Assembly: GCA_016708435.1 (NCBI GenBank)
Contig: JADJFV010000035.1
Location: 1 to 64,000, forward strand
Length of the DNA: 64,000 nucleotides
Origin: Leptospiraceae bacterium
GTDB lineage: Bacteria; Spirochaetota; Leptospiria; Leptospirales; Leptospiraceae
Direction of reading: 5' to 3'
This document shows, one piece after another, positions 6,892 to 58,052 of this stretch (within the stretch, counting starts at the first letter, position 1; the number at the start of each line of letters is the position of its first letter). The notes below the pieces were generated by a model. That model saw nothing but the letters and a program-made list of their open reading frames with translations. It did not search any database and was not told where the DNA came from. The position numbers and the translations under genes were made by a program.

Positions 6892-7238
6892 TGGAGACGC
6901 CGGGGGTCGAACCCGGGTCCTATTGCACATAAGTAAAGCCTCTACATGTTTAGTTTGTAAATAAATCTCGAAGTGCCTTGACCTACAAACAGGTGATTCA
7001 CTCCTATCCAACTTTGGTTCTGCACAAATCCAAGTCGGAGAACGACTTGTGCAACTTTCCGTTTAGAGTCGATACGCTGCCCACCGGAAAGTTAGAGCAG
7101 TTTCTCGTAGCGGCTTAGATTAAGCTGCTAAAGCTAATTCGTTGTTAGCGTTTGTTTTTTGAGAGTTTTTAAAGGCGGCCTCTCACCTCTACATGCCACA
7201 GTACCCAGGTCTACAACAGTCGAAACCAAATCGTCCCC
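6892..7238 (-). ncRNA. ssrA: tmRNA (transfer-messenger RNA)
   Basis: Minus-strand transcript starts GGGGACGAUUUGGUUUCGAC.... It ends with a T-arm CCGGGUUCGACCCCCGG and acceptor strand CGUCUCC + A (CCA not encoded) that pairs with the 5' GGGGACG. This gives the G3:U wobble that is the alanine identity element. The internal tag ORF GCT AAC AAC GAA TTA GCT TTA GCA GCT TAA encodes ANNELALAA*. Confidence 0.9.
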
Positions 7239-29755: not shown

Positions 29756-32467
29756 TTATTTCAGTTCAATTCTTCTTTTTGCGGTTGTCTGCGCGTCTCT
29801 TTTCTTATCATCTCTTGTTTTTTTGATATTAAATCTTTTTACCATATTTTGAAATGCTTCTGCTTGGCTCGACAACTCAAGACTAGCCGCAGAACTTTCT
29901 TCCGCTGTTGCGGCTGCACTCATAGTCACCTGTGAAATCTGATTGACGCCAGCAGTGGTCTCTACAACGGAAGAAGATTGTTCGACAGATGCTGTTGCAA
30001 TGTCTTTTACAAGATCAGTAACTTCTACAACACCAGCTGTCATCTTATTCAATTCGTTTGCAGTTCTTCCCGCAATGTCCATACCAGAGCGAACTGTTTT
30101 AATTGAGCCTTCAATCATCTTAGTGGTTTCTTTCGCAGCATTGGCACTACGAGATGCGAGGTTACGGACTTCTTCTGCAACTACGTTAAATCCTTTTCCA
30201 TGTTGTCCTGCACGTGCTGCTTCTACAGCGGCGTTTAATGCGAGTATGTTTGTTTGGAATGCAATTGCATCAATTTCTTTGATAATCTTAGCAATGTTTT
30301 CAGAAGTTTCACTGATTTCTTCCATTGCTTTGAGCATCCCTTTCATTTCGTTATTGCTTGATACTGCTTGGTCTTTTACATTGAGAGCACGATAACTTGC
30401 ATTCTTCGCATTATTGGCATTATCCTTAGCTTTGAGTTCTATGAGAGAGAGAGTAGCAGTAATTTCTTCTATACTACTCGCTTGCTCATTTGATCCTTGT
30501 GAAAGAGATTGACTCGAATCAGCAACTTGTCTGGAGCTAACAAAGATTTGCTCCGATGCATCCATGATCTCTCCGATCAAGTCATTGAAAGATTCAATGA
30601 TAAGTTTTAAGGCTTCTTTGATTTCCGCAAAATCACCATTAAACTCTTTTTTTATTTCAACAGTTAAGTCGCCCGCCGACATAGAAGAAAGAACTCTAGA
30701 AATTTCTCCCACATATTCATTGAGTGTTCCGAGACTTGAGTTGAGCGCATTCTTAAGAATTGCATGGTCACCTTTATAGTCTCCGGTAACTTTGGATTTT
30801 AAATTTCCTTTAGACAACTCCACTAATACGTTAGTCGCTTCCTGAGTCGGAAGAATTAGAGCGTCTAACGTTTGATTAATTCCTTCGACTACTTTTCGGA
30901 AATCGCCTTTGTGCTTTGATGCATCTGCTCTTGTTGAAAGTTTACCTTCAATGCCTGCGCGGGAAAGCATATTAGCATCTGTCACTAAAAGTGTAAGTGC
31001 TTGAACGGTTTGCTCAAGTGATACATAAATTTTTTCATATTGCTCTTTAACCAATTTAGTATCTTGATCTGATTCTTCTGGTTTGATGGCAATACTTGTA
31101 TTTCCATTCTCCAATTTCCCTAATGCGTCAACTAATTTTGTAACTTCTTTGATTTGGTATTCTCCAATCTTTTTGGAAACTCCCATCGCATTTTTAATTT
31201 GGGTTTGATCCATTACAACTTCAAAGGCAGCAACAACTTCTCCCTTTTCGTTCTTGATAGGAACGGCAGAATAATTAATATCTAAGACTAAATTTCCAGG
31301 TCTTGCTACGTTATCTCGCGCAATATTTCGATTATCCCGCATTGTCAAATAACAGGCACAATTTTCCGTTTTACAGTCATTCGTCTTAAAATGATCAAAG
31401 CATTTTGTTCCGACGAGTTCCTTACCCGTGCGTCCATTTAATTTTGCACCGGCGGAATTCATATAAAGAACATTGTATTCCTTGTCAATAATCATTGCTG
31501 GAATTGGCATTTGATCTAGAAATCCAACTAATGAATCAATCGTCTTATTAACCCCTTCTAGAATACTCTTAAAATCACCAATATAAGAATCGATCTTGGC
31601 TCTTGTGCTTAGTCTTCCTTCTATAGCTGCTTTAGAAAGCATATTAGTTTCTGTAAGCATTGTCTGAAACATATTCATCAATCGATTCAAGGCTTCTGAT
31701 GTTTTGCCCATCTCATCATTATGAGTAACTTGTAATCTAGAAGAAAAATCGCCTTTTGATTCTAAACCAACAACAAAAATATTTATATCAGAAATAAATT
31801 GATCCATTCTTGAAGTAATGCGATTGATGCTCTTCGTGGTAAAAATCGTAACGAGTATGATGATGATTGTCGCAAGAATGGAAATGATAGAAAAGGCTAA
31901 AAATATTTTCTTTACACTTGCATCTGTCTTTGCGCCTTCTGAAGTAATAATATCTTTTTGGTAATCACTGAAACTTGCTACTGCTTTTGAAAGATCATGC
32001 TGTCTTGGTCTTAGTTCTGATAGAAGTAATTTCTTTGCCTCTTCTTTTTTGCCACTATCGAATAAATCTAAATACTGATTTAAAGTCTCTACATATGCAC
32101 TTCTCGTCTTCATTACATCGGCTAATAATTCTTTTCCTCTTTCGCGTCTAACTACAGTCTTTAAATATTCAATGATCCTTGGATTCTTTTCGTCTCTGAT
32201 ATTAATAATAATATCTCTTTCCTTCTGAATTTCTTTTATATCTTCCAGTAAAAGTATACTTCTAGTGGAACGGGCTGTCTGATTAATATTATTATTCATT
32301 TCATGCAAAGTTAGAATCTTTGGAATTCTATCATTGACAATATCATTGACCGAATGCTGAATTTCGTTTAATCCAAATAAATTATATATTGCTGTTCCCA
32401 AGAATAAGAAAAGCACTCCTATAAAACTAAAAATAAGCTTAGATTTAATTGATAATTTTTGAAACAT
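29756..32467 (-). CDS. Methyl-accepting chemotaxis protein with poly-HAMP array and an embedded Cys-rich PAS domain (903 aa)
   Basis: TM1, ~150-aa periplasmic helical domain, TM2, then repeated HAMP-like units (A..G.LSTRA......GDF...VEGVN.T.D). A PAS fold carries a CFDHFKTNDCKTENCAC cluster (nt ~31352-31402). C-terminal MCP signalling domain includes methylation-region repeats and the highly conserved [35 protein letters not shown]. Confidence 0.9.
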   Translation of the reverse strand: MFQKLSIKSKLIFSFIGVLFLFLGTAIYNLFGLNEIQHSVNDIVNDRIPKILTLHEMNNNINQTARSTRSILLLEDIKEIQKERDIIINIRDEKNPRIIEYLKTVVRRERGKELLADVMKTRSAYVETLNQYLDLFDSGKKEEAKKLLLSELRPRQHDLSKAVASFSDYQKDIITSEGAKTDASVKKIFLAFSIISILATIIIILVTIFTTKSINRITSRMDQFISDINIFVVGLESKGDFSSRLQVTHNDEMGKTSEALNRLMNMFQTMLTETNMLSKAAIEGRLSTRAKIDSYIGDFKSILEGVNKTIDSLVGFLDQMPIPAMIIDKEYNVLYMNSAGAKLNGRTGKELVGTKCFDHFKTNDCKTENCACYLTMRDNRNIARDNVARPGNLVLDINYSAVPIKNEKGEVVAAFEVVMDQTQIKNAMGVSKKIGEYQIKEVTKLVDALGKLENGNTSIAIKPEESDQDTKLVKEQYEKIYVSLEQTVQALTLLVTDANMLSRAGIEGKLSTRADASKHKGDFRKVVEGINQTLDALILPTQEATNVLVELSKGNLKSKVTGDYKGDHAILKNALNSSLGTLNEYVGEISRVLSSMSAGDLTVEIKKEFNGDFAEIKEALKLIIESFNDLIGEIMDASEQIFVSSRQVADSSQSLSQGSNEQASSIEEITATLSLIELKAKDNANNAKNASYRALNVKDQAVSSNNEMKGMLKAMEEISETSENIAKIIKEIDAIAFQTNILALNAAVEAARAGQHGKGFNVVAEEVRNLASRSANAAKETTKMIEGSIKTVRSGMDIAGRTANELNKMTAGVVEVTDLVKDIATASVEQSSSVVETTAGVNQISQVTMSAAATAEESSAASLELSSQAEAFQNMVKRFNIKKTRDDKKRDAQTTAKRRIELK

Positions 32468-32530
32468 TTTTAAACTCCTTAGAGGATAAATTAACTTATC
32501 CTCTACAACTTTTTTATATTCCCGTTTTCA

Positions 32531-35500
32531 TTATTTGAGGTTAATCTTTCTTTTCCCCGTTGTTAGCGGTGCTTCTTTCTTTTTTTCCTCTTTTCCCCTT
32601 TTGATATTGAAACGTTTTACCATATTTTGAAATGCTTCTGCTTGGCTCGACAACTCAAGACTAGCCGCAGAACTTTCTTCTGCTGTTGCGGCTGCACTCA
32701 TAGTCACCTGCGAAATCTGATTGATGCCAGAGGTCGTCTCTACAACAGAAGAAGATTGCTCCATAGATGCCGCTGCAATGTCTTTCACCAGGTCTGTCAC
32801 TTCTACAACACCTGCAGTCATCTTGTTTAATTCGCCTGCAGTTCTTCCCGCAATGTCCATACCAGAACGAACAGTTTTAATTGAACCTTCAATCATCTTA
32901 GTAGTTTCTTTTGCAGCATTGGCACTACGAGATGCGAGGTTACGGACTTCTTCTGCAACTACATTAAAACCTTTTCCATGTTGTCCTGCACGTGCTGCTT
33001 CTACAGCGGCGTTTAATGCGAGTATGTTTGTTTGGAATGCAATTGCATCAATTTCTTTGATAATCTTAGCAATGTTTTCGGATGTTTCGCTAATTTCTTC
33101 CATTGCTTTGAGCATCCCTTTCATTTCGTTATTGCTTGATACTGCTTGGTCTTTTACATTGAGAGCGCGATCACTAGCATTCTTCGCATTATTGGCATTA
33201 TCCTTAGCTTTGAGTTCTATGACAGCAAGAGTAGCAGTTATTTCTTCTACACTGCTTGCTTGTTCGTTAGAGCCTTGTGAGAGAGATTGGCTGGAGTCGG
33301 CAACTTGCCTAGAGCTAATAAAGATTTGCTCCGATGCATCGATGATTTCCCCGATCAAATCATTGAACGATTCAATGATAAGCTTTAAAGCTTCTTTGAT
33401 TTCCGCAAAATCACCATTAAACGCTTTCTTAATCTCGATAGTTAAGTCGCCCGAAGACATGGAAGACAAGACTCTGGAAATTTCTCCCACATATTCATTT
33501 AAAGTTTCGAGACTGGAATTTAAAGCATTCTTGATGATGGCATGATCGCCTTTGTAATCACCGTTGACTCTTGCACTTAGATTTCCTTTGGCTAATTCCA
33601 ATAATACGTTGGAGGATTCCTGCATTGGACTGATTACAGCGTCTAATGTCTGATTAACCCCTTCGACTACTTTTCGGAAATCGCCTTTGTGTTTTGATGC
33701 ATCTGCTCTTGTTGAAAGCTTACCTTCAATAGCCGCGCGGGAAAGCATATTAGCATCGGCAACTAGTTCTTTCAGTGCATTTCGAATGGCAACGTTACTC
33801 TTTGCCATGATGTCTTTATCTGACATGACTTTTATTTCGACATCTAAATTTCCCTCCGCTAAACTTTGAACAACGGCGGCATCATGTTGGGTATTTGCAA
33901 TCATACTTTGGATATTCTTGAATAGGGAGTCTCCTTGTGATCTCATTTCAATTCTGACTTCTGTATTTCCAATAGATAGAGAAGAGGCTACATTGGTAAG
34001 CAGACTTTCAGAGTCAATGAGTAGGTTTAAGTTATTCTTAATAGTATTAAAATCTCCATTATAACTCTCTGTAATTTTGGGAGGAATAATTCCTTTAGAG
34101 ATTTTGTCTACATAATCAGCGGCAACGTTTAAAGGTGTAATAACTGCGTCTAATGTAGCGTTAACCCCTTCGACAATTTTACGGAAGTCTCCTTTGTGTT
34201 TGGTTGCATCGGCACGCGTAGCTAATTGACCTTTGACAGCAGCATCTGCCAATTTTCCAGCATCACTAATCAACGCTTTTAGGTTCAGTCGGACTTGATC
34301 AATTATTTCATTGATGAAAGCTTTTTTGCCAGGTAGCTTATCAATATTTGCCTCAAAATTTCCTTCTCCAAATTCTTTAAAAATTCCCATTGCTCTTTTT
34401 TTAACGCTAATATGGTCAAATACCATTTTATTGATACCAGTAACCATTTCTTGGTATGCACCTTGGAATTTTGAAACGTCAATTTTTACATCAATGTCTC
34501 CCAGTTCATGCTGTTTGGACATATCATTCATGGATTCAATAATACCCAAAAGGGAGCCAATGCAAGTGTTGAGATTATTTTTGATAGTGTTAAAATCTCC
34601 GTTGTAGGTATCGGTGATTTTGGAAGGGATATTTCCTTTGGATATTTTATCTACATAATCTGCGGCAACATTTAAAGGTCCAATCACAGCGTCTAATGTC
34701 TTATTAACCCCTTCTACAACCTTTCTAAAGTCACCGGGATAACGAGAAATATCTGCACGAGTAGAAAGTTTTCCCTGAATGGCAGATTCTGTAAGTAACA
34801 TAGTATCTTTTTTCATATTCTCTAGCATTGCTAACAAACTACTGAGTGAGTTAGCGACCTCTGCTACTTCATCCTTGGAGGTTGAATCTACTTTAATAGA
34901 AAATTCTCCTTCTTTTTCCACTTTGCGAATAGCAAGGAGTAGAGCGGCTAACGGTTTCGTAATAGAATTTGAAGTCATGTAACTGAAGAAGATAGAAAAA
35001 AGAATAGCGATAGACGATATAACTAGCACATAGGAACTCGCTTTTTGAGAATCATTGAGTGACTCTTGATTGGCAGTAGTAGACAGCTCTGTTTCATATA
35101 CGATTAAATCTTTTACCGCTTTCAAATATTGCTGCTGAGTAACTGAGAATTGAGGTAAAGTATCTTTTGCTCCTTTGTAGTCGCCTACTTCTAATTGCGA
35201 AATGTATTTGTCCTGATAGGGAATGAATTTTGTTCTTGCATCGGCTAATTCCTGTATGCCAAATCTTTCCTTTTCCGTATTTGCATTTTCACGGAGAAAC
35301 TGAATATCTTGCACATTGCCTGAACGGTTTTGCAGAATTCTATCTTTTGCAAGCAATACTTCTTCTCTCGATTCTTTTAGTGTTGCGCTGAGTAGGTAAA
35401 TTGTATTTTCATTGACGCGGTCAATAATATTATTGCTTCGGACAACTTTAGGTGAATACACTTTGGTAATTTTCTCCAAACTTCCTCCCAAATGACTCAT

Positions 35501-35596
35501 CAAATAGAACACAATAGTGCTTAGTATGACGAGGAAAAATATAACTAATCCATATCCCAGCCTAAGCTTCGTTGAAATTTTTAAATCCTCTAACAT
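32531..35596 (-). CDS. Methyl-accepting chemotaxis protein with very long poly-HAMP array (1021 aa)
   Basis: TM1, periplasmic helical domain, TM2, then ~500 aa of alternating HAMP units (e.g. [37 protein letters not shown], a textbook P...I..G.....GD...I...LN HAMP). The C-terminal ~330 aa are nearly identical to the upstream paralog. Confidence 0.9.
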
Positions 35597-36411: not shown

Positions 36412-36969
36412 ATGAAAAATCTTTTAGATGCGATTAACTCATTTATTCAAGTAAAAGAAAAAACAAAAAAAGCAATTCAATCTAAAACCGCATTTATTAG
36501 CATCTCCAAAAAAGAAATCTTATTAAGTCATGGGCAAATAGCCGATAACCTCTACTTTATTCGCAAGGGTTTGTTTCGGGGATTCTCTATGCACAAACGA
36601 AAAGATGTTACGAATTGGTTTGCGAAAGAAAATGAATTTGTAACTTCTATGTATTCTTTTGTGTCTCGAAATCCTTCTCTCGAAACTATTGAAGCCTTAG
36701 AAGATTCAGAGCTTGATTTTATTTCTTACAAAGATCTAAATGAACTGTATTCCACGTATGCAGAATTAAATATGCTCGGTCGAATCTTTATTGAAAAATA
36801 CTATGTTGAGTTAGAGGAAAGAGCCAACTCGTTTCAGTTTCAATCGGCTAAAGCTCGTTATGCGCACTTCCTAGAAAAGAATTCAACCTTGTTTCGTCGG
36901 GTTAAGTTGGGTCATATCGCATCCTATCTCGGAATCACAAAAGAAACTTTGAGTCGAATCCGAACTTGA
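36412..36969 (+). CDS. Crp/Fnr-family transcriptional regulator
   Basis: cNMP-binding fold (GQIADNLYFIRKGLFRGF) and C-terminal HTH (HIASYLGITKETLSRIR). Confidence 0.8.
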   Translation: MKNLLDAINSFIQVKEKTKKAIQSKTAFISISKKEILLSHGQIADNLYFIRKGLFRGFSMHKRKDVTNWFAKENEFVTSMYSFVSRNPSLETIEALEDSELDFISYKDLNELYSTYAELNMLGRIFIEKYYVELEERANSFQFQSAKARYAHFLEKNSTLFRRVKLGHIASYLGITKETLSRIRT

Positions 36970-37088
36970 CCTTTTGACTCCACTTACGGGGCTAACGAGT
37001 ATTTACTGTTCTATCCTGTTTACTTTCTATTTAAACATTTAACATCAGAAGAGAAAATAGTTTGCTAAATTGGATTTTGTAAATAATT

Positions 37089-37400
37089 CTAAGCTTGAAT
37101 CAAACCTAATTCTTGAACACTTTGAATTGATTTCAGCTCTTTAGCAAAATGCTTTCTAGATTCTTCTAAGTCAAAATAGTTTTGAAGATTGAGCCAAAAC
37201 TCAGGCTCGATACTAAAAAATTTACCTAGCTTTAAAGCTGTCTCTGCGGTTACTGATCGTTCACCGCGAATGATCTGCCAGAGTCTTGTTTGCGAAAGTC
37301 CGGTTTCCTTTGCTAATTTATAAACAGAGATGCTCATTGGAATTAAAAATTCTTCTTTTAGCACATCACCGGGATGAATGTTTTTTATTTTCTTATTCAT
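37089..37400 (-). CDS. higA: HigA-family antitoxin (XRE-type HTH)
   Basis: IHPGDVLKEEFL...SISVYKLAKETGLSQTRLWQIIRGERSVTAETALKLGKFF is the typical HigA HTH. Confidence 0.8.
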   Translation of the reverse strand: MNKKIKNIHPGDVLKEEFLIPMSISVYKLAKETGLSQTRLWQIIRGERSVTAETALKLGKFFSIEPEFWLNLQNYFDLEESRKHFAKELKSIQSVQELGLIQA

Positions 37401-37414
37401 AGTATAATTCCTAT

Positions 37415-37702
37415 TTAATGATAATCTACAATTTCTACATCACTTGCATTTCCATCAGTCCAGATAAAGCAAATTCGATACTTTTCGTTGATTCGAATGC
37501 TCCACTGACCTTTTCTATTCCCTGATAATTGCTCCAAGCGGTTACTAGGAGGAATCCGCAAAGAGTCAATACTAGGTGCAGACGCAATCATACGTAACTT
37601 TCTTCGTGCTACTTCAAACAAATTAGGTGATAGTTTTATTCTCTTTGAAAATTCTCCTTCCCAGATCATCTCGGTTTCTTTGTCTGCGAAGTTTACTATC
37701 AT
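37415..37702 (-). CDS. higB: HigB-family toxin (RelE/ParE superfamily plasmid-maintenance killer)
   Basis: 95-aa protein, upstream of and 14 nt from higA. The motif RKGQWSIRINEKYRICFIW...DVEIVDYH is characteristic of HigB. Confidence 0.8.
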   Translation of the reverse strand: MIVNFADKETEMIWEGEFSKRIKLSPNLFEVARRKLRMIASAPSIDSLRIPPSNRLEQLSGNRKGQWSIRINEKYRICFIWTDGNASDVEIVDYH

Positions 37703-38123
37703 ATAATGATAGTAAACTAAATTGATTTATTTTGTCAATGAAATTTTTATTACCACGAAGGATTTCTCTTTGTTCGACCGAGCGTGGAAGTCACCGAATT
37801 ACTTACACGTAAATCCATTGCGAAGGTTGATTACTTGACATTCCAAGGCGATTTTAAGGATTATAGATTTGTGAAAGAGAAAATAATTTGGGTTTGGCGT
37901 TTTATATTTCTCGCGTCGGTAATTTTATGGTTAAAATCCAACGTGCTTACAGTTGAAGTTTTTCTTCTCATTCTTTCGTTTTCTAATATTTCTGAGCCTT
38001 TTTTACATCTCTAGTCTCTTATGCGTTTCAAATTTATTCATTTTACCGGGTATTCATAAGTAGCCGCATTAACACTTTACCTTTATATCAGTTCTCTTTT
38101 TTGGTATAGTTTTATTAGTTAAT

Positions 38124-39212
38124 CTAAAAATTTACAACGGCACCCAGTCGTAAAGATTTTAATTCGTTTAATATTGGGTCACGATAAATGATATAACTTG
38201 ATAGCATTTCAGAGAGTGCAAGTTGGGGTCTAGAAATTCCTGATGCATTGGCAAATCGAAAGAAAGCAGGAGGCTGATAATTTTCATAGTAAACATATAA
38301 CCTATCATAATCAAGTGTAACTGAAATAGAAAGATTTTCAAAGATTGGATACTGGTAATCCATGAGTATCCGCACTCCATAAATATTTGGCTTTTTATCT
38401 CCGTAAAGATAATTTGTAACTAGCAAATCGCTGGATACATTGCCGGTGAAAATATCAATGGGAAATCGAATTGCTCCTACCTGTTCGATTTTTCCAGAAC
38501 TAGAAATAAGTCCAAGGCTTCTAGGACGAAAGGAAACTTCACCGGTAATTTTTCCTTTCTCGAATATTTTCGTTATGCTAAAACCGGCAAATAAATTCGA
38601 AGTCCTGTAATTACTTTCTGCATGAACTACTCCTAAAAATCCTGGCGCGTAAAGAGTAACGTTTTTCTCATACTCTGACTGAAAATCTCTCTTCATTATT
38701 AAACCGCTGACAATAATGGATGAAAATTTATTTCCAACGGATAATCTGCTATTTGCGTTACTAGTCTTAGCCAAAATATTTCCTTGTCCTTGAAAAAAAC
38801 CAACTGCGGGATAATTGAAATTAGACTGCAATTGGGAAGCATTGAATCCATTTAGTCCGAGAGTCTCAAGTCCTGCTAAAAAGACAAAATTACTTTTAGT
38901 GTAAAAGAATTTAAATTCCATTGGATTTAAAAACGCAGGAAAATATTTCTGTGAATACGATCTATTAATCGCTCCAAAACCTAAACCATCGCTTCCACCT
39001 GCTGCTAAGTCATCTTTATAATAACGCTTTTCAAATTCCGGCCGATAGTCAGAAACTGAAATTCCTGTTTTGATTTCAACTCTGGATTCTGCATGGATTA
39101 AAGTAGGAGTTGTAAATAATAGAATTAGGGTCAAAGAATAAATTATTCTTGGCAATGATTTAAATAATCCTAATCGGTTCTTAGATTCAAATTCTTGGAA
39201 ATAAAATTGCAT
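38124..39212 (-). CDS. Hypothetical outer-membrane beta-barrel protein
   Basis: Signal peptide, alternating amphipathic beta-strand pattern, C-terminal ...LGAVVNF with terminal Phe typical of OMPs. Confidence 0.45.
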   Translation of the reverse strand: MQFYFQEFESKNRLGLFKSLPRIIYSLTLILLFTTPTLIHAESRVEIKTGISVSDYRPEFEKRYYKDDLAAGGSDGLGFGAINRSYSQKYFPAFLNPMEFKFFYTKSNFVFLAGLETLGLNGFNASQLQSNFNYPAVGFFQGQGNILAKTSNANSRLSVGNKFSSIIVSGLIMKRDFQSEYEKNVTLYAPGFLGVVHAESNYRTSNLFAGFSITKIFEKGKITGEVSFRPRSLGLISSSGKIEQVGAIRFPIDIFTGNVSSDLLVTNYLYGDKKPNIYGVRILMDYQYPIFENLSISVTLDYDRLYVYYENYQPPAFFRFANASGISRPQLALSEMLSSYIIYRDPILNELKSLRLGAVVNF

Positions 39213-49012: not shown

Positions 49013-50215
49013 CTAATTACTCTTAGCTGCATTTACAAAATACATGTCGATTTCGCCTTTATTCTTGGCTGCGACCTTGCCTCTGTATTCACAAATAAAA
49101 TTATCTTTAATCAATTCATAGGTGTATCCTGAAATATTCACTCTGCCCGGAAAGCCAGAAGATTCCATTCGACTGGCAACGTTTACCGAATCTCCCCAGA
49201 CATCATAGCAGAATTTCTTAGTTCCTACAACTCCTGCGACGAGTGGACCGGAGTGAACTCCAATCCGAATTTCCCATGGTGGAATTCCTTGTTGGGAATT
49301 GATTGTATTTACGATGTTCATGTAGTCTGCTAGTTCAAGTCCCGCCTTAATGATATTAACCGCATGATTTGGGTCTTTCTCTGGAATACCGGCTACGCAC
49401 ATGTATGCGTCACCAATTGTTTTAATCTTTTCAATCTTATAGATTTGCATGATAGAATCGAAATAACAAAAAAACTGGTCTAGTTGATGAATCAATTCTT
49501 CTGTTGTAAATTTCTCCGATAATTTGGTGAATCCTTTAAAGTCCGTAAATAGAATACTCGCACTTTCATAAAATACCGGCTTTGCTTTGCCGGTCTCCCT
49601 TAATTCCTTTGCTACTCGCTTTGGTAAAATATTTAACAACACTTCTTCTGTTTCTTTTTTACTCAGATCTAAAGATTTGTTTAATTTCTTTAATTCAATT
49701 TGAGCATTCACGAGTTCATTGTATTGCTTGAGAGAATTTTCGTAGGTAGAAAGAAGCATATTTAAAATATGTAAACGGTCTGCTACTATCTCAAAGTTTT
49801 TCCCCGCATAATTTATATTAATCGGAGTAACATCTTCATTGGTTGCAATTGGATTATTTAGAAGAGTCTCCACTCGATACATTAAGTATTTTTTGTCATA
49901 GGGCTTGGTGACGTAACCATCTGCACCGCATTCGATGCCTGTAATAATATCTTCCGGTCTAGAAAGAGAAGAGCAGATAACAACGGGTATGTCCTTTAAG
50001 GCATCGTTATTTTTAATTTTTCGACAGAGTTCAAATCCATTCATGTCTGGCATCTCAACGTCTGTTATGATGAGAGAAGGTTTTTCTCTTTCGACTAACG
50101 CATAGGCTTCTGCTCCATTCTTTCCCCAAAACACAGTATAGCCTTCGTCTACTAAGATACGCCTGAGCATTACACCTTGCACGGAACTATCTTCTGCAAA
50201 AACAATTGTGTGCAT
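49013..50215 (-). CDS. Response-regulator receiver fused to class III adenylate/guanylate cyclase
   Basis: REC (IVFAEDS...IITDVEMPDMNG...KP), coiled-coil linker, and cyclase homology domain (ILFTDFKGFT...KTIGDAYMCVAG...VWGDSVNVASRMES). Confidence 0.85.
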   Translation of the reverse strand: MHTIVFAEDSSVQGVMLRRILVDEGYTVFWGKNGAEAYALVEREKPSLIITDVEMPDMNGFELCRKIKNNDALKDIPVVICSSLSRPEDIITGIECGADGYVTKPYDKKYLMYRVETLLNNPIATNEDVTPININYAGKNFEIVADRLHILNMLLSTYENSLKQYNELVNAQIELKKLNKSLDLSKKETEEVLLNILPKRVAKELRETGKAKPVFYESASILFTDFKGFTKLSEKFTTEELIHQLDQFFCYFDSIMQIYKIEKIKTIGDAYMCVAGIPEKDPNHAVNIIKAGLELADYMNIVNTINSQQGIPPWEIRIGVHSGPLVAGVVGTKKFCYDVWGDSVNVASRMESSGFPGRVNISGYTYELIKDNFICEYRGKVAAKNKGEIDMYFVNAAKSN

Positions 50216-50217
50216 CT

Positions 50218-51261
50218 CTAAATCAATCCTAGTATATGCGATGCTATTTTATCAACTGGAAGTTGAATATCTAATGCGCCAATTTCTTTTGCGACTTTCG
50301 GCATTCCATAGACTACACAAGTTGATTCTGCTTCCCCGATTGTTTTTCCACCTAAGTGTTTAATGGTGAGTATCCCCGTTGCTCCATCATCTCCCATGCC
50401 TGTTAGGATTACTGCGAGAGTTTTATCTCCGGCGTATTTGGCGAGAGATTTGAATAACACATTGACTGAGGGACAATGACCATTAAACGGTGCTTCATTG
50501 GATACTTGTAATTTGCCGTCAGATCCTATCACCATATGTTTTAAGTTCTGCGGAAAATACACAGTGCCCGCAACAGGAGTTTCTCCTTCGTGCATGATTT
50601 TTACTTTCAGTTTTGTATTTTGTCCAAGCCAGGAAACCATACTCTCAATGAATCCATCACTTATATGTTGGACGCAAAGTATGGGAAGAGGGAACTCTCT
50701 AGGTAGTCCACCGAGCACTTGTTGTATTGCATTTGGTCCACCTGTTGATGCACCGATACCGAGGAATTTTATTACTTGTTTTTGAGAGCTAGTGATTGTA
50801 GGAAAGCTTCCTGTATCAACTCCAGGATGTTTCTTAGTTTTTTTATAAACGGGGATACTCTTGATTACGCGTATTTTTGAAACGAGTCTATCGCGAATCA
50901 TATCATAGTCCTTTTCTGTTCCGCCTAATGGTTTAGGAAATACATCGAGTGCTCCAGCTTCGAGTAATTGAAATACATTCGTTTCGTTTTCTCCCTGAAG
51001 CGCCGCACTTACAACAAGAATCGGTTTGGGGTTAGTCTCCATTAGCTGCTTTGTAAATTCTAGTCCATCCATGACTGGCATCATGAGATCAGTGCAGATC
51101 ACGTCTGGATTTAAAAAGCGAACCTGGTCTAATCCTTCGCTTCCATTCTTTGCAGTTCCGATTACCAATACTTCGGAACTCTTATCTAAAATTCTTTTTA
51201 ATATGTTCAAGACGATAGGCGAATCATCGATGAGCAATACTTTGATTTTATTTTCTATCAT
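50218..51261 (-). CDS. cheB: CheB methylesterase/response regulator (second copy)
   Basis: REC plus GASTGGPNAIQQVL methylesterase domain. Confidence 0.9.
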   Translation of the reverse strand: MIENKIKVLLIDDSPIVLNILKRILDKSSEVLVIGTAKNGSEGLDQVRFLNPDVICTDLMMPVMDGLEFTKQLMETNPKPILVVSAALQGENETNVFQLLEAGALDVFPKPLGGTEKDYDMIRDRLVSKIRVIKSIPVYKKTKKHPGVDTGSFPTITSSQKQVIKFLGIGASTGGPNAIQQVLGGLPREFPLPILCVQHISDGFIESMVSWLGQNTKLKVKIMHEGETPVAGTVYFPQNLKHMVIGSDGKLQVSNEAPFNGHCPSVNVLFKSLAKYAGDKTLAVILTGMGDDGATGILTIKHLGGKTIGEAESTCVVYGMPKVAKEIGALDIQLPVDKIASHILGLI

Positions 51262-53717
51262 CTAAGCCTCTTTATGATTTGTAACAAATCTTTTCTATCA
51301 AATTTTGTTTTTACTAAATACGCGTCAGCACCTGCATCCATTCCCTGTTTTATGTTCTCTTCTGAGCCTAGGGAAGTAAGCATGATGACGGGAGTGTTTT
51401 GTAATTTTGCTGAGTCCTTTATTTTTTTCGTAAATTCTAATCCATTCATCTTAGGCATTTCCATATCTGTGATTACTATGCTAAATTTCTCTGTGTTTAA
51501 TTTGGACCAACCGTCTTCTCCGTCGATTCCAATTTCTACATCGAATCCTTCTGTCTCTAGAATCCTCTTTATTTGCACACGGGTTGTAAGAGAATCATCA
51601 ACTACTAGAATTTTAAAATTAGATTCTTCTTGGTTCTTGTCTTCAACCATTATAGAAATATTGGTTTTAGTAATCGTCTTTACTAATTCTTTAGGGTGGA
51701 GGATAATGCATATTTCCCCCGAATCAAGAATCGTAGCACCGGATACATTTCTAACTTTTTTTAATATACCTTCGAATGATTTAATAATGACTTCATTTTT
51801 TTCGATTACCGAATCTACTACTAGTGCAAGTTTAATTCCATCTGATTGTATGAACAAACAAGGAGTAGGCGCTGTTATTTTCTTTGCTGTGATTTGAGCA
51901 ATCTCTAAATAATTTGCAAGCTGAACTAGATGCACTGGTTGTTTTTCTATAACGACTGTGCTTTGTCCTTCTAAAATGAAAATATCTTTCGGGTAAATGG
52001 TTTTACTGAGTATTACATTATCCGCCGGAAATCCAAACTTTTGATTTCCCACTGAAATGATTAATACATGAGTGGTAGAAAATTTAATCGGGAGCTTGAT
52101 TCTAAATGTTGTTCCTACGCCTAATTCGGATTCGGTGTCAATGTCTCCTTTGAATTTTTCTACAAAGCTTTTTACTACATCCATTCCTACACCACGACCG
52201 GAGAGGTTGGAAACATTGCTTTGAGTAGAGAATCCATGTTGGAAGATGATGGAGTAAATTTTTTTATGATCCATTTGACTCAATTCATCTTGATTGTATA
52301 AACCTTTTTCTATTGCCTTGCTCTTGATTTTTTCTATGTCGAGTCCTTTTCCATCATCTTTGATTTCTATTAATACAGTATCACTTTGACTTTTTCCAAA
52401 TAGAGTGATAGTGGCTAATTCAGGTTTGCCTGATTTGGTTCTAGCTTCTTTTTCTTCTATTCCATGGTCTACAGCGTTTCGGATAATATGCATCAAAGGA
52501 TCTTTTAATTCTTCTAGAATTTGTTTGTCAACGGTTGTCTCTCCACCTTCGATAATGAGTTGCACATTTTTTCCAGTCTCTCTGCTTAAATCTCGAACAG
52601 TTCTATGAAACAAGCTGAACACAGTTGAAACTGATAGCATTCGTAGGTTGTAGATTCGTCTCTCTATTTTCATGGAAGTGAGGCTAAGACGTGTTGTATC
52701 ATTACTTAGATTTTTTTTGAGTCGATTGATATTCTCTTCTAAGTTTTCGAGCTTACTTGTTTCTTTGGTGTTTAATTCTTGTAGCTGTGTGAGAAAAAAT
52801 TTATGCTTAGGACTCAGATCAGTTTGCTTTGCGAAATTGCTTAATAGATTTCTAGTTTCCTGAACTGTGCGTAAAAGCTCTTCGTAAGAATAATATGCAT
52901 CACCCACTTCTTTGACTCGATTTAAAATTCTATTCTTGGTTACAATCAGTTCACCCGTTTGCACCATGAGAGCATCTAACTTGGATGGATCCACGCGCAT
53001 CGTATCCGTTTTCTTTTGCTCTATAGAATTTGATTTATTCTTTTCAGTATCCCCTTCTTTTTTAGAGGGAGTATCTACAACGGATGCTTTTTTGCTTTCA
53101 ATGATTTTATCAATCTGATCTTTTATCTCAGGCTTGGGAGGATTAGGTGTAGCCGTTAGTTCTTTTGGTGGTGGTTCTGGAATAACAGTATTATCCGCAA
53201 CAGGATTGGGCTTGGGTTCTACTTTTACTTCTTGCTTTGGAACTTCTGGCTTTACTTCTTCGGGTTCTTTTTTTTCTACTGTGATGATACTTGCTTTATT
53301 TTCAGAGGATTTTGTTTTATTGGAGATGTCATTCTTACTTTCAATTAATTTATCTAAAACAGAAATAACATCTACATCGGAGCTTTCGCCTGTAACCGCT
53401 TCATTGACTAGTTTCTTGATTGCGTCAATGCCTTCATAGTAAATGTCTATTTGCTTAGGGGTAATTTGGAATTCGCCGCGACTTGCTTTTCCTAAAACTT
53501 CTTCGAAAATATGAGCAATCGATTCTATATCAGAAAGACCGAGCATACGGCTAGCACCTTTCATGCTATGAGCCTCTCTGAATATTAAATGCAGAATATC
53601 ATAGTCATGAGGGTTTTTTTCTAAGGTCAATAGGCATTTTTCGATTACTTGCATATGCTCTTCACTTTCTATCTGGAAGAGATCTCTTAGTTCTTGGTCT
53701 TCGATCATAATGCCCAC
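51258..53717 (-). CDS. cheA: CheA histidine kinase with C-terminal receiver (CheA-CheY fusion)
   Basis: HPt (HSMKGASRMLGL), Pro/Lys/Glu-rich linker replacing P2, P3 (RVDPSKLDALMVQTGELIV), HATPase (HGIEE, GRGVGMD), CheW-like P5, and REC (ILVVDDS...VITDMEMPKMNG). Confidence 0.9.
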   Translation of the reverse strand: MGIMIEDQELRDLFQIESEEHMQVIEKCLLTLEKNPHDYDILHLIFREAHSMKGASRMLGLSDIESIAHIFEEVLGKASRGEFQITPKQIDIYYEGIDAIKKLVNEAVTGESSDVDVISVLDKLIESKNDISNKTKSSENKASIITVEKKEPEEVKPEVPKQEVKVEPKPNPVADNTVIPEPPPKELTATPNPPKPEIKDQIDKIIESKKASVVDTPSKKEGDTEKNKSNSIEQKKTDTMRVDPSKLDALMVQTGELIVTKNRILNRVKEVGDAYYSYEELLRTVQETRNLLSNFAKQTDLSPKHKFFLTQLQELNTKETSKLENLEENINRLKKNLSNDTTRLSLTSMKIERRIYNLRMLSVSTVFSLFHRTVRDLSRETGKNVQLIIEGGETTVDKQILEELKDPLMHIIRNAVDHGIEEKEARTKSGKPELATITLFGKSQSDTVLIEIKDDGKGLDIEKIKSKAIEKGLYNQDELSQMDHKKIYSIIFQHGFSTQSNVSNLSGRGVGMDVVKSFVEKFKGDIDTESELGVGTTFRIKLPIKFSTTHVLIISVGNQKFGFPADNVILSKTIYPKDIFILEGQSTVVIEKQPVHLVQLANYLEIAQITAKKITAPTPCLFIQSDGIKLALVVDSVIEKNEVIIKSFEGILKKVRNVSGATILDSGEICIILHPKELVKTITKTNISIMVEDKNQEESNFKILVVDDSLTTRVQIKRILETEGFDVEIGIDGEDGWSKLNTEKFSIVITDMEMPKMNGLEFTKKIKDSAKLQNTPVIMLTSLGSEENIKQGMDAGADAYLVKTKFDRKDLLQIIKRLR

Positions 53718-53729
53718 GCAAAATACCTG

Positions 53730-55715
53730 TTAGCCTTGCTTATGACCTTCGACTAGGTCTCTTAGTTTGCGGGTTGCATCGCCAATTTGGTTGACGCCGA
53801 CTTTTGTTTGTGCAATGCCACTGGCAGATTCTTGTGAGCCTCGATTGATTGAATTCATCGCGCTTACAATTTCGTTCATGGAAATAGATTGTTGTCGAAT
53901 GTTGATAGAAATTTTCTCAATGCTATCAAATACTCCGGCAACGGAATGATTAATTCCAGAAAGAGAATCTAATACTTTAGATCCTAGTCTTGAGCTATCA
54001 TCTGCTCGTTTCACTCCTTCTTCTGTTGCCATGACAGTAGAGTCTGTTGCTTTTTTGATTTCCGAAATGATTTCTTGAATCTTTAGGGCTGACTTCTTGC
54101 TTTCATCGGCGAGCTTTCTGATTTCAACGGCTACTACCTCGAAGCCTTTCCCGTTCTCACCAGCTCTCGCCGCTTCTACTGCTGCATTGAGTGCGAGCAT
54201 ATTGGTTTCGTTTGCTAATTCACTGACTAATCCGATTATATTGCTGATCTGACTATTTTTTTCGGAGAGTCGTAAGATTTGTTCCGCAATGCCGGAAACT
54301 CGTATTTTTAAAGTGTCAATGGACTGAATCATTTCTAGAACCGAATTATGCCCGTTAACCGCCATATCCTGTGCATCTTTTGCTTTCATTGTGACACTCT
54401 GTGATTCTTCGGCAGAGAGGCGAGAAGAGTTACCAATATTACTAATCGTAGTAGTTGTTTGGTTGACTGAGGCAGACTGCATGTTAGCCGTTCTTTCATG
54501 GTTGTCAATGACAGAGCTAATTTCTCGAATGGAAGTAGATAGAATATTTACAGATTCTTGAATAGGCTTACTTAAAATTCTAGATAGGAAATAACTTGCT
54601 ATCGCCATGATTGAAAGAACAATCAGAGTTATAAAAAACATTTGGTTTTGAAAGCTAGAGAGAGCAGCAAGTGTTTCGTCATAATCTAAGTCTATGAGCA
54701 GGGCATATTTTACACCGAGTAGTTCTATTGGTGCATAGGCGGTAAATGTTTTCCCACCTGCAATGCCTGTTGTTACGACTATTCCTGATTCGCCGCTAAG
54801 TGCCTTTTTTGCTTGCTCGGTTTCAAATTTCTTTTTTAAGATGCTTGATTCTTTTGCATTGTCTTCGAATTCACTTCTGAGTAAAAAATCAGGACCTACT
54901 AAGAAGGATGTTTCTTTTCTGTTCTTCACAATTGGTTTTCTAATTTTGTTACTGATTTCGTCTAACGGTAGTTGGAATACTAAAATGCCTTCTAATTTTC
55001 CGTCTATAAAAATTCCACTTCCTATAAATTAATTCACCTGGTTATTCGATGCCGCATAAGGCTCGTAATCCACAAGTTGAGCTTGCTGTCCTCCGTCGGG
55101 TGAGTTGATAACCTTTCGATAAAGCTTTCCTAAATTAGAGTCTCTATAAGGTCCGACAGAGAGGCTTGTCATATAATCTTCCTCTTTGGCAACGGTGAAT
55201 AGAATATTTCCAGTCCTTGCATCGATTAAGAATGCATCATAGTAATTTCTTTCTTTGATGATGGAAGAAAAAAAACTAAGTGCTTGTCCGTGCGCTTTGC
55301 TGTATTCAGAATTATCCGCTTCTAAAAGATTTTGTTTGCTTCCGGGTGGATTTGGATTTCCGGAGATGTAGAGTGATTTATAAATATCTTTTGCTCGTTC
55401 AAATCCTCCCATTCTTTCTACTGCTGTTCTCATTTCTAGAAAGCGCTTTGTAGCTGCTACACTTTTTCGAAATATGAATACATCTTTGATTTTATATTCA
55501 AAGTATTCCATGAATTCATTCTTTTTGGATTCGCGGATAATTTCAATTTGCTGATTAGCACCGGAGTAGATGATAGATCTACCAATTACATTTCCAGGAA
55601 TCGCTATAGAAAGAGCGACGACTAGGGTAGAAATAATTGTAAATAGAATAAGTCTCCAAGTGAAATCGAGCCGATGAACGAATGAAATAAGCATATTTTT
55701 CTCCTTAATAACCAA
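53730..55715 (-). CDS. Methyl-accepting chemotaxis protein with periplasmic Cache-like domain, interrupted by one in-frame TAA (55029-55031)
   Basis: 55029..55715 carries TM1 and the first half of the Cache domain. The same frame continues through a single TAA into [26 protein letters not shown]..., then TM2 and the MCP signalling domain ([33 protein letters not shown]). Confidence 0.75.
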
Positions 55716-56739
55716 TACTTTCTTCTACATAAAGTTTTTCATAAGCGAATATTTTTTCTGTGTCAATGAGACCGACACTAAATGAATCATAAAAACAAAG
55801 TCCTTTCATGAGATTTTCCCCAACGGTATTCTTATCCGTGGGGTTACTCAGGATTTGCTCTTTGGAAAGATAAATTACATCAATGAGTTGGTCTACAATC
55901 AAACCAATCATCATTTCGTCAAAGCGAATCACTACAATTTTTTTGTTTTCAATCGATGTGCTTTGTTCTGATTTCAGTAAATAGAGTAAATCAATTAGAA
56001 CTAGCATGTCACCACGTAAATTTACACAACCAGAAATATGGGCGGGCACACAGGGAATTCTAGTAATGCCTTCGCCGTGTGCGAATTCTAGAATGTATTT
56101 TAATTCGATCGCAAGGTATTCATCTTTTAATCGAAACACAACAACAGATAATAAATTAGAATACTCTTTGATATTTGTAGACTGCGAATAATTATTCTTA
56201 CGGCTAATGAGTATTTGCTTGTCTTTTTCGGTTATACCGCTGAATAGCTTTGCGAGGTGAATATCTGAAAATGGTTTAATCCTTTTCGGATCAGACGGAG
56301 GTATATCTAGATTAGTCAATGCTTCTAGATTGATGATTTGTGTGATACCAAATTGAGTTTGAATCACTCCGTCTGTGATTTTGTCTGCAATGATTTCATT
56401 TGAGATGGTTTGTTTTTCATGGGTAAAGTGAATTACATTGTGAACATCATTGATGTGAATACCAAATTTTTTTTTGTCCTGGGTGATAACTAGAATTCTA
56501 TCATTTACAGAATATCTTTTTGTTTTCATACCCTGTCTGAGATTGAGATCAATGATTGGGACAAATTCTCCCCGAAAGTTAAAATACCCGACTACAAAGA
56601 AAGAATTAGACTCGATACGAGTAAGTTCTGGAAGCCAGATGAGCTCAACTACATGAGAGGATTGAATCGCATAGACATTGGACTGAACAGAAAAAACTAA
56701 GAAACTCTCTTGCATAGGTGTATTAACTTTTATAACCAT
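55705..56739 (-). CDS. Tandem CheW-CheW coupling protein
   Basis: Two CheW-like domains (VFSVQSNVYAIQSSHVVELIWL...; VVVFRLKDEYLAIELKYILEF...). Confidence 0.8.
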   Translation of the reverse strand: MVIKVNTPMQESFLVFSVQSNVYAIQSSHVVELIWLPELTRIESNSFFVVGYFNFRGEFVPIIDLNLRQGMKTKRYSVNDRILVITQDKKKFGIHINDVHNVIHFTHEKQTISNEIIADKITDGVIQTQFGITQIINLEALTNLDIPPSDPKRIKPFSDIHLAKLFSGITEKDKQILISRKNNYSQSTNIKEYSNLLSVVVFRLKDEYLAIELKYILEFAHGEGITRIPCVPAHISGCVNLRGDMLVLIDLLYLLKSEQSTSIENKKIVVIRFDEMMIGLIVDQLIDVIYLSKEQILSNPTDKNTVGENLMKGLCFYDSFSVGLIDTEKIFAYEKLYVEESIGY

Positions 56740-58052
56740 ATACCAGATTCTTCGCTAAAAAAAGATTCCAAACTTTCAATATGATATCCTTTGTTTTTAT
56801 AAATCTGCTTTAAGTGTTCATTGTGCTGCAAACAAAACAATCCTGCTTTTCTAACTTTCAGCGATTCAGAAGTATTGTGTAATAGGCTATAAAGACTACA
56901 CAATGTCAAGTAAGATTCTAAAAAAAGAGGATTTAAATAAATAACTTTTTTATAAAGTTCAATCGCTCCATTCCAATTTCCAGAAGCTTCTTTGAGTTGA
57001 CCTTTCAAGAACCAGGCTTCGTGATTGGAAGGATTTGTTTGCAATAACTCTTCAACTAAGTATTCTGCTTCTAATACTTTTCCTGCGTCGGCGAATTCTC
57101 TTGCCTTTGCGAGAGAATCCCTTTCCCAGTTCCTTGATTCTGCAAGAGGGCGTATCGAATTCAGTGGGGAAGGAGTCTGGTTTTTTTCTCTTGCGGGTAA
57201 TACTGTTTTGGCGATAGAGGGCAAAATCGAATCTGCTTTAGGAAGTATTTTTTTATACACCATCGATTTCTGGTATTGAATTGCTTCGAACGATTTGGGA
57301 ATTAAGTGAGCGGCTTCTGAATGTCCTATTAGTAAATAGGCATTATCCACTAAAGCTTTTTCAAATTTTTCTAAAATGATTTTTTTAGAAGGATCATCGA
57401 AATAAATGAAAACATTTCTACAGAGAATCAAATCAAATTCTTTGAAGTAGTTTGAGGTAAATAGATTGCTCTCTATAAATTGAACATGGTTTCGAATAGA
57501 ATCATTGATTCGATAGATATTCTTTTTTTGTGTGAAGTATTTTTTGATTCTGTCTTCTGGAACTCCTCTAAAGGACCAATCCAGATATTCACCAAGGATA
57601 GCCTGCTTAATAGAGTCTCCATTTACATCTGTGGCTAATATGGATATACTCCAATCAGCGGTAAATGGAAGTAATTCGGAAAGTAGAATTGCAATCGAGT
57701 AGGGCTCTTCTCCCGTAGAGCAGCCTGCACTCCAGATACGAATTCTTTTCGAAGCTCTCTTTTGTTCTATGATATGAGGGAGAATGTTCTTTTCTAAAAT
57801 TTCAATCTGACCGGCGTCGCGCAAAAAGTAAGTCTCGGAAATATTGAGAGACTTGATTAGTATCTTCCATTCTTCATTCGAACTAACAGAGTTTTCTCGT
57901 AAAATATCTAAATACATTTCCTCTGATAATTTTTTAAAGAGAGATGATTTTTTTTTGAGAGTATCCAGGTAGAAGTCTACTTTGTCTTCTCCAATATGAA
58001 TTCCTAGCTTTGCTAAGATCGCTTTAGAAATTTCAAGAGAGAAATGATTCAT
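56730..58052 (-). CDS. cheR: CheR methyltransferase with C-terminal TPR repeats
   Basis: CheR SAM-MTase core (RIWSAGCSTGEEPYSIAILL, LCRNVFIYFD) followed by TPR-like repeats. Confidence 0.85.
   Translation of the reverse strand: MNHFSLEISKAILAKLGIHIGEDKVDFYLDTLKKKSSLFKKLSEEMYLDILRENSVSSNEEWKILIKSLNISETYFLRDAGQIEILEKNILPHIIEQKRASKRIRIWSAGCSTGEEPYSIAILLSELLPFTADWSISILATDVNGDSIKQAILGEYLDWSFRGVPEDRIKKYFTQKKNIYRINDSIRNHVQFIESNLFTSNYFKEFDLILCRNVFIYFDDPSKKIILEKFEKALVDNAYLLIGHSEAAHLIPKSFEAIQYQKSMVYKKILPKADSILPSIAKTVLPAREKNQTPSPLNSIRPLAESRNWERDSLAKAREFADAGKVLEAEYLVEELLQTNPSNHEAWFLKGQLKEASGNWNGAIELYKKVIYLNPLFLESYLTLCSLYSLLHNTSESLKVRKAGLFCLQHNEHLKQIYKNKGYHIESLESFFSEESGIWL

Follow-up and report, generated by a model that had tools for sequence, protein, structure and literature searches.

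Two genes for predicted transmembrane chemoreceptors, mcpB and mcpA, lie side by side on the minus strand of a 64,000-nucleotide stretch of Leptospiraceae DNA (contig JADJFV010000035.1 of assembly GCA_016708435.1, positions 1 to 64,000; GC content ~36%), to which we refer as the window. mcpB occupies 32531-35596 and encodes 1021 amino acids (aa), mcpA occupies 29756-32467 and encodes 903 aa, and a spacer of 63 nucleotides (nt; 32468-32530) separates them. These are exactly the open reading frames (ORFs), in position, strand and length, that an initial annotation made from the sequence alone had described. The pair heads a che operon with the gene order mcpB-mcpA-cheW-cheA-cheB. Directly downstream, on the same strand, come cheW (29254-29745, recognised by Pfam CheW), a cheA split into a first ORF with the Hpt domain (28514-29245, 243 aa) and a second one with the HATPase and CheW domains (27364-28524, 386 aa), and cheB (26295-27374). 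These neighbours support the assignment of both receptors to the methyl-accepting chemotaxis proteins (MCPs), and cheA is intact in the syntenic locus L010 of a sister species. The two cheA ORFs of the window overlap, and a comparison with the unbroken cheA of the sister species (625 aa) shows one extra base beside an A-run near 28,520-28,570; the split reflects either a pseudogene or a homopolymer sequencing error. In another locus of the sister species, L012, cheA is also split, at a different place.

Architecture of the two receptors

Both proteins are MCPs, each being matched by PF00015 with E=2.5e-44 (151.6 bits vs a cut-off of 34.6). According to Pfam, each one has an N-terminal 4HB_MCP_1 periplasmic sensor (4HB_MCP_1/TarH in mcpA), a hydrophobic second transmembrane segment (TM2), a membrane-proximal canonical HAMP and a C-terminal signalling domain. 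The latter is collinear with residues 230-524 of E. coli Tsr (PDB sequence match, E=8e-45), and we take it to belong to the Tsr length class among the classes of Alexander and Zhulin. The AlphaFold2 (AF2) model of mcpB contains two long antiparallel helices, 730-870 and 874-993. The segment inserted between TM2 and the signalling domain had been read as a series of HAMP-like units, and a scan with hidden Markov models (HMMs) does recognise these repeats: HAMP_2 (PF18947) matches mcpB in 5 stretches (E=2.2e-101) together with HAMP_N3 (E=1.7e-23), and HAMP_2 matches mcpA in 3 stretches (E=1.4e-36), beside PAS_9/PAS_4 at aa 317-423.

In mcpB, from the 4HB sensor and TM2 to the signalling domain, we found an array of 12 HAMPs, H1-H12 (aa 208-750; 33347-34975, minus strand), of which H1 is canonical. 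In the AF2 model, built for the full-length protein from a 12-sequence alignment (mean predicted local distance difference test score, pLDDT, 67), 12 helix-connector-helix units follow each other about 45 aa apart between aa 230 and 729, with helices continuing into the next unit. The connectors of H1-H6 lie at aa 230-242, 275-288, 320-334, 365-379, 411-424 and 456-469, and those of H7-H12 at aa 501-515, 542-556, 581-595, 625-638, 670-683 and 715-729. When the chain was cut into units and each was scanned separately against Pfam, H1 matched the canonical HAMP, H3, H7, H11 and H12 the full HAMP_2, H5 HAMP_N3 and H4, weakly, McpB_HAMP_2, while H2, H6 and H10 were matched over the second helix only. 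In addition, aa 355-453 match HAMP2-3 of Aer2 (PDB 3LNR, E=1.8e-16) and aa 613-700 match Aer2 3VOL, and in all 10 of the 12 units have HAMP support from Pfam or PDB. An iterated HMM of the HAMP unit settled on a single unit type and gave no unit count. The initial annotation was therefore right about the nature of the repeats but too low in their number, as it had counted 8-10 units where the AF2 connectors give 12. At the nucleotide level there are few internal repeats and their identity does not exceed 80-88%, the best having 79.5% nt identity over 161 nt. Nor does the term giant, which had been applied to both receptors, fit them, since poly-HAMP MCPs number in the thousands and reach 1,770 aa; mcpB alone has >7,000 relatives at E<1e-20, many of them of 1,300-1,770 aa.

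In mcpA, ORF and Pfam analysis gives a 4HB sensor, two HAMPs (H1+H2, aa 211-315), a PAS with a cysteine motif (aa 316-427), a helix-loop-helix of ~60 aa (aa 438-497), three HAMPs that correspond to the last three of mcpB, and the signalling domain. The helix-loop-helix aligns with H9 of mcpB and is a probable HAMP, beside 5 recognised ones. In this sense, the description of the 903-aa protein as having fewer HAMP units plus a PAS was accurate.

A shared output cassette with patchy identity

The last three HAMPs and the signalling domain constitute an output cassette that both genes share. The blastn alignment places it at aa 611-1021 of mcpB (32531-33765, minus strand) and at aa 494-903 of mcpA (29756-30987, minus strand), with 87.3% identity over 1,235 nt between mcpA nt 1481-2712 and mcpB nt 1832-3066, much more than chance could give (E=0). 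The 5' boundary is sharp and coincides with the start of the third-from-last HAMP (mcpA aa ~494, mcpB aa ~611). At the protein level, the 4HB sensors are 19% identical and everything upstream of the boundary 25%, compared with 90% within the cassette. The claim of the initial annotation that the N-terminal parts differ is thereby confirmed; the ~95% identity that it estimated by eye for the last ~1.0-1.3 kb is too high, as the identity is 87.3% overall and 90.6% within the quoted range 29760-30480. No further copies of the cassette were found within the window.

Identity within the cassette is a mosaic. Nucleotide identity between mcpA and mcpB is 96-100% at mcpA aa ~681-775 and 841-870, 83-85% at aa 801-836 and 68-80% at aa 537-575, and only ~300 nt, around the hairpin tip, are at 96-100%. 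Third codon positions vary as well: their identity is 0.83-0.93 at mcpA aa 676-780 and 0.93 around aa 841-870, and falls to 0.53-0.60 around aa 631-660 and 811-840 and to 0.43-0.47 around aa 541-570.

For comparison, syntenic loci were obtained by exact-protein look-up of the closest relatives (P0003, P0004 and P0001). L009-L012 belong to a sister species (~91-93% nt identity), L014 is a conspecific strain (98-99% nt identity, ENA assembly), and L013 comes from a more distant relative that has an mcpB ortholog, cheW and then an mcpC-like gene, and lacks mcpA. L010, L011 and L012 contain an mcpB ortholog of 931 aa, an mcpA ortholog of 916 aa, cheW, a 625-aa cheA (the split one in L012) and cheB, and four independent JGI assemblies of the sister species agree with 0-8 differences over 6.3 kb. 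Between L014 and the window, mcpB differs at 4 residues and mcpA at 3. No identical copy of the mcpA protein was found in the assembly index, and a contig search with the sensor half of mcpA gave no orthologs, all of its matches being distant relatives (<=41% identity) from metagenome-assembled genomes (MAGs) of Bacteroidota, Ignavibacteria and Spirochaetales.

Over the last 425 codons, orthologs are 94.0% (mcpA) and 90.7% (mcpB) identical in nucleotides, and within-genome paralogs 86.3% (window) and 87.0% (L010). Since orthologs are closer than within-genome paralogs over this length, the duplication predates the species split. Along the gene, this relationship is inverted in places. At mcpA aa 681-775, where the window pair is at 96-100%, the orthologs are at 89-95%; at aa 801-860 it is the L010 pair that reaches 99-100%, vs 83-85% for the window pair, and L010 mcpB is mcpA-like there. 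Synonymous divergence (dS, by Nei-Gojobori) at mcpA aa 529-675 is 1.0-1.2 for paralogs vs 0.28-0.61 for orthologs, and at aa 676-780 it is 0.148 (window) and 0.098 (L010) for paralogs vs 0.265-0.356 for orthologs. At aa 781-840 the L010 paralogs have a dS of 0.17 and the window paralogs of 0.60. Paralogs compared across genomes have a dS of 0.33 at aa 676-780, indicating that the tips of mcpA and mcpB were homogenised before the species split and then again after it. Nonsynonymous divergence (dN) is low everywhere (0.004-0.085).

Site patterns were also informative. In the four-taxon comparison 93 sites follow orthology, 22 are concerted (within-genome) and 8 are cross. The orthology sites are found at mcpA aa 479-675 and 883-902, and within aa 676-880 there are 2 of them vs 14 concerted sites (Fisher p=9e-11, for a region that was chosen after the data were seen, the effect being very large). 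When the order of variable sites was permuted, the longest identical runs gave p~1e-4 for mcpA=mcpB in L010 and p=0.007 for mcpA=mcpB in the window. Identity, dS and site patterns delimit a main conversion tract around the hairpin tip, at aa 676-780 of mcpA (30128-30442, minus strand) and aa 793-897 of mcpB (32906-33220, minus strand), and tracts differ between lineages and between strains. These comparisons support short-tract, patchy gene conversion as the process that would repeatedly homogenise the cassettes of mcpA and mcpB. The initial annotation had proposed recent duplication or gene conversion: the second term is sustained by a paralog dS at the tip below the ortholog dS, and the first is not supported, in view of the background dS of 1.0-1.2 and of the presence of both paralogs in the sister species.

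Conversion is also visible between strains. Window and L014 show 0-1 differences per 150 nt across mcpB and mcpA, except for two clusters in the cassettes plus cheW. L014 has a 552-nt run in which mcpA and mcpB are identical (mcpA aa 694-877), and the longest such run of the window is 110 nt. A window-specific patch in mcpA, aa 761-813 (30029-30187, minus strand), is absent from L014 and has mcpC-type bases, mcpC being a third receptor gene described below: 8 of its 9 private differences are the base of the sister-species mcpC. A second window-specific patch, with 14 private sites, lies in mcpB, aa 933-956 (32729-32800, minus strand), where mismatches between window and L014 cluster. Both window patches and the L014 tract come each from a single assembly. 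Judging from these alignments, conversion seems to be still under way, with at least three genes taking part.

Turnover of HAMP modules and of the mcpC-cheW unit

HAMP number has changed in mcpB by a whole module. At 34217-34561 (minus strand) the window has 345 nt where the ortholog of the sister species has 75 nt; this segment encodes the end of H3, H4, H5 and the start of H6, a net gain of 90 aa that equals one di-HAMP (H4-H5, Aer2 HAMP2/3-like). The mcpB homologues P0003 and P0004 lack aa 348-437 of the window protein, and the conspecific L014 has the extra di-HAMP at 99.4%. Thus, mcpB has 12 units in the window and 10 in the sister species and in the distant relative L013, and since the L013 mcpB is also short, the 12-HAMP state is probably derived. 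Large gaps among mcpB-type homologues are of -181, -90, +92 and +181 aa, corresponding to 8, 10, 12, 14 and 16 units. The iterated unit HMM finds a single unit type in mcpC, at intervals of 91 aa. Non-canonical and canonical HAMPs may alternate within the di-HAMP modules: the HMM picks up one unit type, indels among homologues measure ~90 or 181 aa, and the intervening units are matched by Pfam in the second helix only. The modularity of HAMP number that had been proposed from the sequence holds as an evolutionary pattern, with di-HAMP steps and 12 vs 10 units.

A second kind of turnover affects whole genes. The operon exists in a long form, mcpB-mcpA-cheW1-mcpC-cheW2-cheA, in L009 and L014, and in a short form, mcpB-mcpA-cheW-cheA, in the window and L010-L012. 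The cheW-mcpC cassette occupies 15583-21323 in L009 and 15852-18310 in L014, and its mcpC encodes 1453 aa with more than 20 HAMPs. The cheW of the window is a cheW1/cheW2 chimera: in the alignment with L009 and L014 it resembles cheW1 over the first ~120 nt and cheW2 from there on, and the switch falls in the most conserved ~70 nt with a few interleaved bases. This chimeric gene marks the junction of the deletion and is the footprint of unequal homologous recombination between direct repeats (MCP cassette plus cheW), with loss of mcpC-cheW. Long and short forms are both present in both species, which reflects either a shared polymorphism or recurrent deletion.

Taken together, it is highly probable that mcpA and mcpB are old tandem paralogs that carry their own sensors and HAMP chains on a common output cassette of ~410 aa, re-homogenised by gene conversion, with unequal recombination and di-HAMP changes at the same locus. 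Each receptor would pass the signal of its own periplasmic 4HB sensor through its own HAMP relay chain to the common cassette, made up of the last three HAMPs and the kinase-control hairpin, and the hairpin would dock onto the products of the neighbouring cheW and cheA. Homologous recombination in short, non-reciprocal tracts, with the hairpin tip at their centre, would repeatedly make the anciently diverged cassettes alike, with the third paralog mcpC as an occasional donor. Repeats of the cassette plus cheW would allow unequal recombination to add or remove mcp-cheW units, and the HAMP chains would lengthen or shorten by whole di-HAMP modules.

Several points weigh against this explanation. 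All sequences are metagenome or unknown-source assemblies. The private patches (30029-30187; 32729-32800) could have arisen where the assembler changed path from one paralog or strain to another that is nearly identical, and the 552-nt identical tract of L014 could be a partial repeat collapse. The donor of the mcpB patch was not found; its 14 sites match no other compared copy of mcpA or mcpB, that of L014 mcpB included. Likewise, no donor of H4-H5 was found among the fetched loci, the best match being a Bacteroidales MAG (72.6% nt, 60% aa) and not the neighbouring mcpC. Because of the cheA frameshift the operon may not be fully functional in the window strain, unless it is an assembly error. 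Finally, H8 and H9 of mcpB and aa 428-497 of mcpA fall below the Pfam threshold, and H8, H9 and mcpA aa 438-497 are taken as HAMPs from their periodicity and from an AF2 model of only moderate confidence there (pLDDT ~50-60).

Among other explanations, an assembly artefact, in which reads of one paralog or strain were threaded through the other copy to give chimeric or collapsed 3' halves, survives best, and we still consider it improbable. Errors of this kind are typical of near-identical tandem repeats, the window and L014 differ exactly in the repeated cassettes, and the homopolymer-associated frameshift of cheA hints at imperfect sequence. However, the four independent JGI assemblies all show the tandem layout, the sharp boundary and the tracts of the sister species, and the ENA assembly of the species of the window shows the overall pattern. 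In all, the tandem arrangement and the mosaic recur in six independent assemblies, and the concern over mis-assembly is for the most part answered. Besides, aa 529-675 are anciently diverged (dS ~1) within the same repeat, contrary to collapse, and the cheW junction is a mosaic and not a clean switch. Read-level validation is needed for such loci in metagenome assemblies.

A recent whole-gene duplication, after which the 5' sensor half was rapidly replaced or diverged and the 3' identity stayed as a remnant, would be expected to give the tandem, same-orientation pair and the sharp identity boundary that we found. Yet the sister species already has the two paralogs with this boundary, their background dS of 1.0-1.2 is several times the between-species dS, and some tracts are younger than the species split and the strain split, which a single duplication cannot give; this makes it very unlikely. 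Strong purifying selection on the signalling domain alone, without recombination, is hardly credible: few parts of chemoreceptors are as conserved as the MCP hairpin tip, and the cassette proteins are 90-100% identical with very low dN, but selection at the protein level leaves synonymous differences, and here the paralog dS at the tip (0.10-0.15) lies below that of orthologs (0.27-0.36) and 7-10 times below that of the equally constrained aa 529-675, with lineage-dependent tracts (aa 801-860, 99-100% in L010 vs 83-85% in the window) and a topology that switches along the gene. Purifying selection accounts for the protein identity, since dN is low throughout, but not for the synonymous pattern, since dS is patchy.

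Input domain, surroundings and significance

The PAS of mcpA (aa 316-427; 31187-31522, minus strand) is recognised by Pfam PAS_9/PAS_4 and modelled by AF2 with a pLDDT of 86 and PAS-fold matches. It contains the motif K-C356-x8-C365-x4-C370-x-C372 (31352-31402), with an acidic D358, in a loop ahead of the helix that starts at residue 72 of the modelled fragment. An exhaustive representative search found 4,683 representative clusters of this PAS family at E<=1e-3. In 258 domains the three leading cysteines are 95-97% conserved, an aspartate at C+2 is present in about half, and the fourth cysteine is frequent. MCPs account for 115 of the 150 top relatives and sigma54 activators for none (0/150), and the PAS often occurs in tandem copies, up to 30 in one protein. 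A sequence search of PDB with the PAS gave only an insignificant match to PYP (best E=0.2), the fold search returned generic PAS domains and no solved homologue with the Cys motif, and a word-indexed homology search with the PAS fragment returned one fragment only.

OrpR of Desulfovibrio vulgaris, the nearest described analogue that we found, has a [4Fe-4S] redox-sensing PAS with C52, D/E54, C61 and C65 (PMC8359166). By described motif, and not by sequence comparison, the PAS of mcpA resembles it in its three conserved cysteines and in the acidic residue two positions after the first (C356, D358, C365 and C370). They differ in the second spacing (C-x3-C in OrpR, C-x4-C in mcpA), in the fourth cysteine that is frequent in the mcpA family, and in context, as the OrpR PAS belongs to a sigma54 activator and the mcpA-type PAS to MCPs. 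As a hypothesis only, the PAS of mcpA could be an OrpR-like redox or metal sensor, and the mcpA product would then combine two inputs, a ligand in the periplasm and a redox or metal cue in the cytoplasm. A literature search on iron-sulfur (Fe-S) PAS chemoreceptors found nothing specific.

Around the receptor genes, a cyclic nucleotide monophosphate (cNMP)-binding regulator (36412-36969) is divergently oriented upstream of mcpB, and a 415-aa HATPase protein follows cheB downstream on the same strand. Inside the spacer between mcpB and mcpA there is a perfect 10-bp palindromic hairpin (TAGAGGATAA...TTATCCTCTA) at 32480-32505, the sequence of which forms the first 13 codons of a longer mcpA call in the sister species. 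A scan for promoters and terminators gave counts at or below the shuffle expectation. Beyond the regulator, a stretch of ~2.2 kb (36978-39202), with a helix-turn-helix (HigA-like) gene at 37089-37400 and a 362-aa ORF at 38124-39212 that has no Pfam match, is absent from the sister species at that place; the annotation of L014 has HigB-like and PemK toxins near this position, and the stretch looks like an islet that varies between strains. An 830-aa protein encoded downstream of the che genes (22088-24580) has matches to the Major Vault Protein shoulder domain (PF11978, E=6e-24), to a Vault repeat and to SPFH/Band 7; this bacterial MVP-like gene is kept at the same position in the sister species.

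The window also contains a second chemosensory cluster (49013-58052), with a CheR-like gene (56730-58052), a double-CheW protein (55705-56739), a 399-aa MCP (53730-54929), a CheA-REC hybrid (51258-53717), CheB (50218-51261) and a REC-adenylate/guanylate cyclase (49013-50215), a content that suggests a Che-type pathway with cyclic-nucleotide output. Elsewhere, a RuvB ORF (61324-63243) has 639 aa vs 328-348 aa in homologues, and the ~300 residues that it has in excess at the C-terminus finish with a weak match to TonB_C (E=5e-5); the stop codon may have been lost, the gene may be fused with the next one, or the sequence may contain an error. The named proteins closest to this RuvB come from Leptospiraceae MAGs (72-76%) and from Leptospira species (61-71%), which places the host in an uncultured lineage of Leptospiraceae. 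A transfer-messenger RNA (tmRNA) gene lies at 6892-7238, with the tag peptide ANNELALAA.

Gene conversion between tandem paralogs is a textbook process, and the locus, although well documented, illustrates phenomena that are already known and does not constitute a new kind of system. In the literature searched we found no paper on gene conversion of MCP output modules, which is not proof of novelty. The di-HAMP steps seen here agree with published work in which poly-HAMP arrays are built of repeated di-HAMP modules and lengthen by amplification within the gene (PMC13446029). Like the poly- and multi-HAMP arrays of earlier reports (Dunin-Horkawicz & Lupas 2010; Airola et al. 2010; Coles et al. 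2026, PMC13446029), mcpA and mcpB have linkerless HAMPs upstream of an MCP signalling domain, a di-HAMP module of ~91 aa in which a divergent and a canonical-like unit may alternate, length steps of whole di-HAMPs, and strong matches to Pfam HAMP_2 and HAMP_N3, both built on Aer2. The arrays of Coles et al. belong to soluble receptors, often with nearly identical repeats (PMC13446029), whereas the products of mcpA and mcpB are membrane receptors with a 4HB sensor and heterogeneous units, and so are nearer to the term multi-HAMP. With Aer2 of Pseudomonas aeruginosa and Vibrio, mcpA shares the order HAMP-PAS-HAMP-MCP and mcpB the match to HAMP2-3; Aer2 is, however, soluble with a haem-binding PAS, while the products described here are predicted to be transmembrane and the PAS of mcpA has C-x8-C-x4-C-x-C. 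As Aer2 equivalogs, both were rejected, with NF041847 scores of 257.7 and 333.7 bits vs a cut-off of 1200. E. coli tar-tap and Campylobacter jejuni Tlp2/3/4 (PMC9769880) are alike in having divergent ligand-binding modules on a common kinase-control module, one CheA/CheW array and paralogs that arose by domain duplication; at mcpA and mcpB, in difference to them, synonymous sites document the homogenisation, its tracts are specific to lineages and strains, there is a third donor, and cheW mediates the gain and loss of a cassette.

The hairpin tip of chemoreceptors contacts CheA and CheW and forms trimers of dimers, and thus, with uniform tips, the products of mcpA, mcpB and mcpC could co-assemble in one array, and the relay of each input would be determined by the HAMP chains and the PAS. 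In this sense, homogenisation may keep both receptors compatible with one CheA/CheW array. Also, adjacent HAMPs adopt opposite states, so that gain or loss of HAMPs in pairs would preserve the sign of the output signal. Going further, we suggest tentatively, and with more doubt than conviction, that the copies of cassette plus cheW act as a recombination scaffold by which sensor modules (mcpA, mcpB, mcpC) are swapped in and out of one che operon while their docking surfaces are re-homogenised, that strain-level repertoire and HAMP length are selected and not a passive by-product, and that the PAS of mcpA stems from a large, apparently uncharacterised, possibly Fe-S, Cys-motif chemoreceptor family. 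This PAS is possibly a lead to a widespread redox- or metal-sensing chemoreceptor input. Natural variants of one receptor type with 8, 10, 12, 14 and 16 HAMPs are at hand for studying the passage of signals through long HAMP chains. The locus offers a clean natural example of how chemoreceptors stay compatible with one array while their sensors diversify, and conversions can be traced there on three timescales, across species, inside one species and in a single strain alone.

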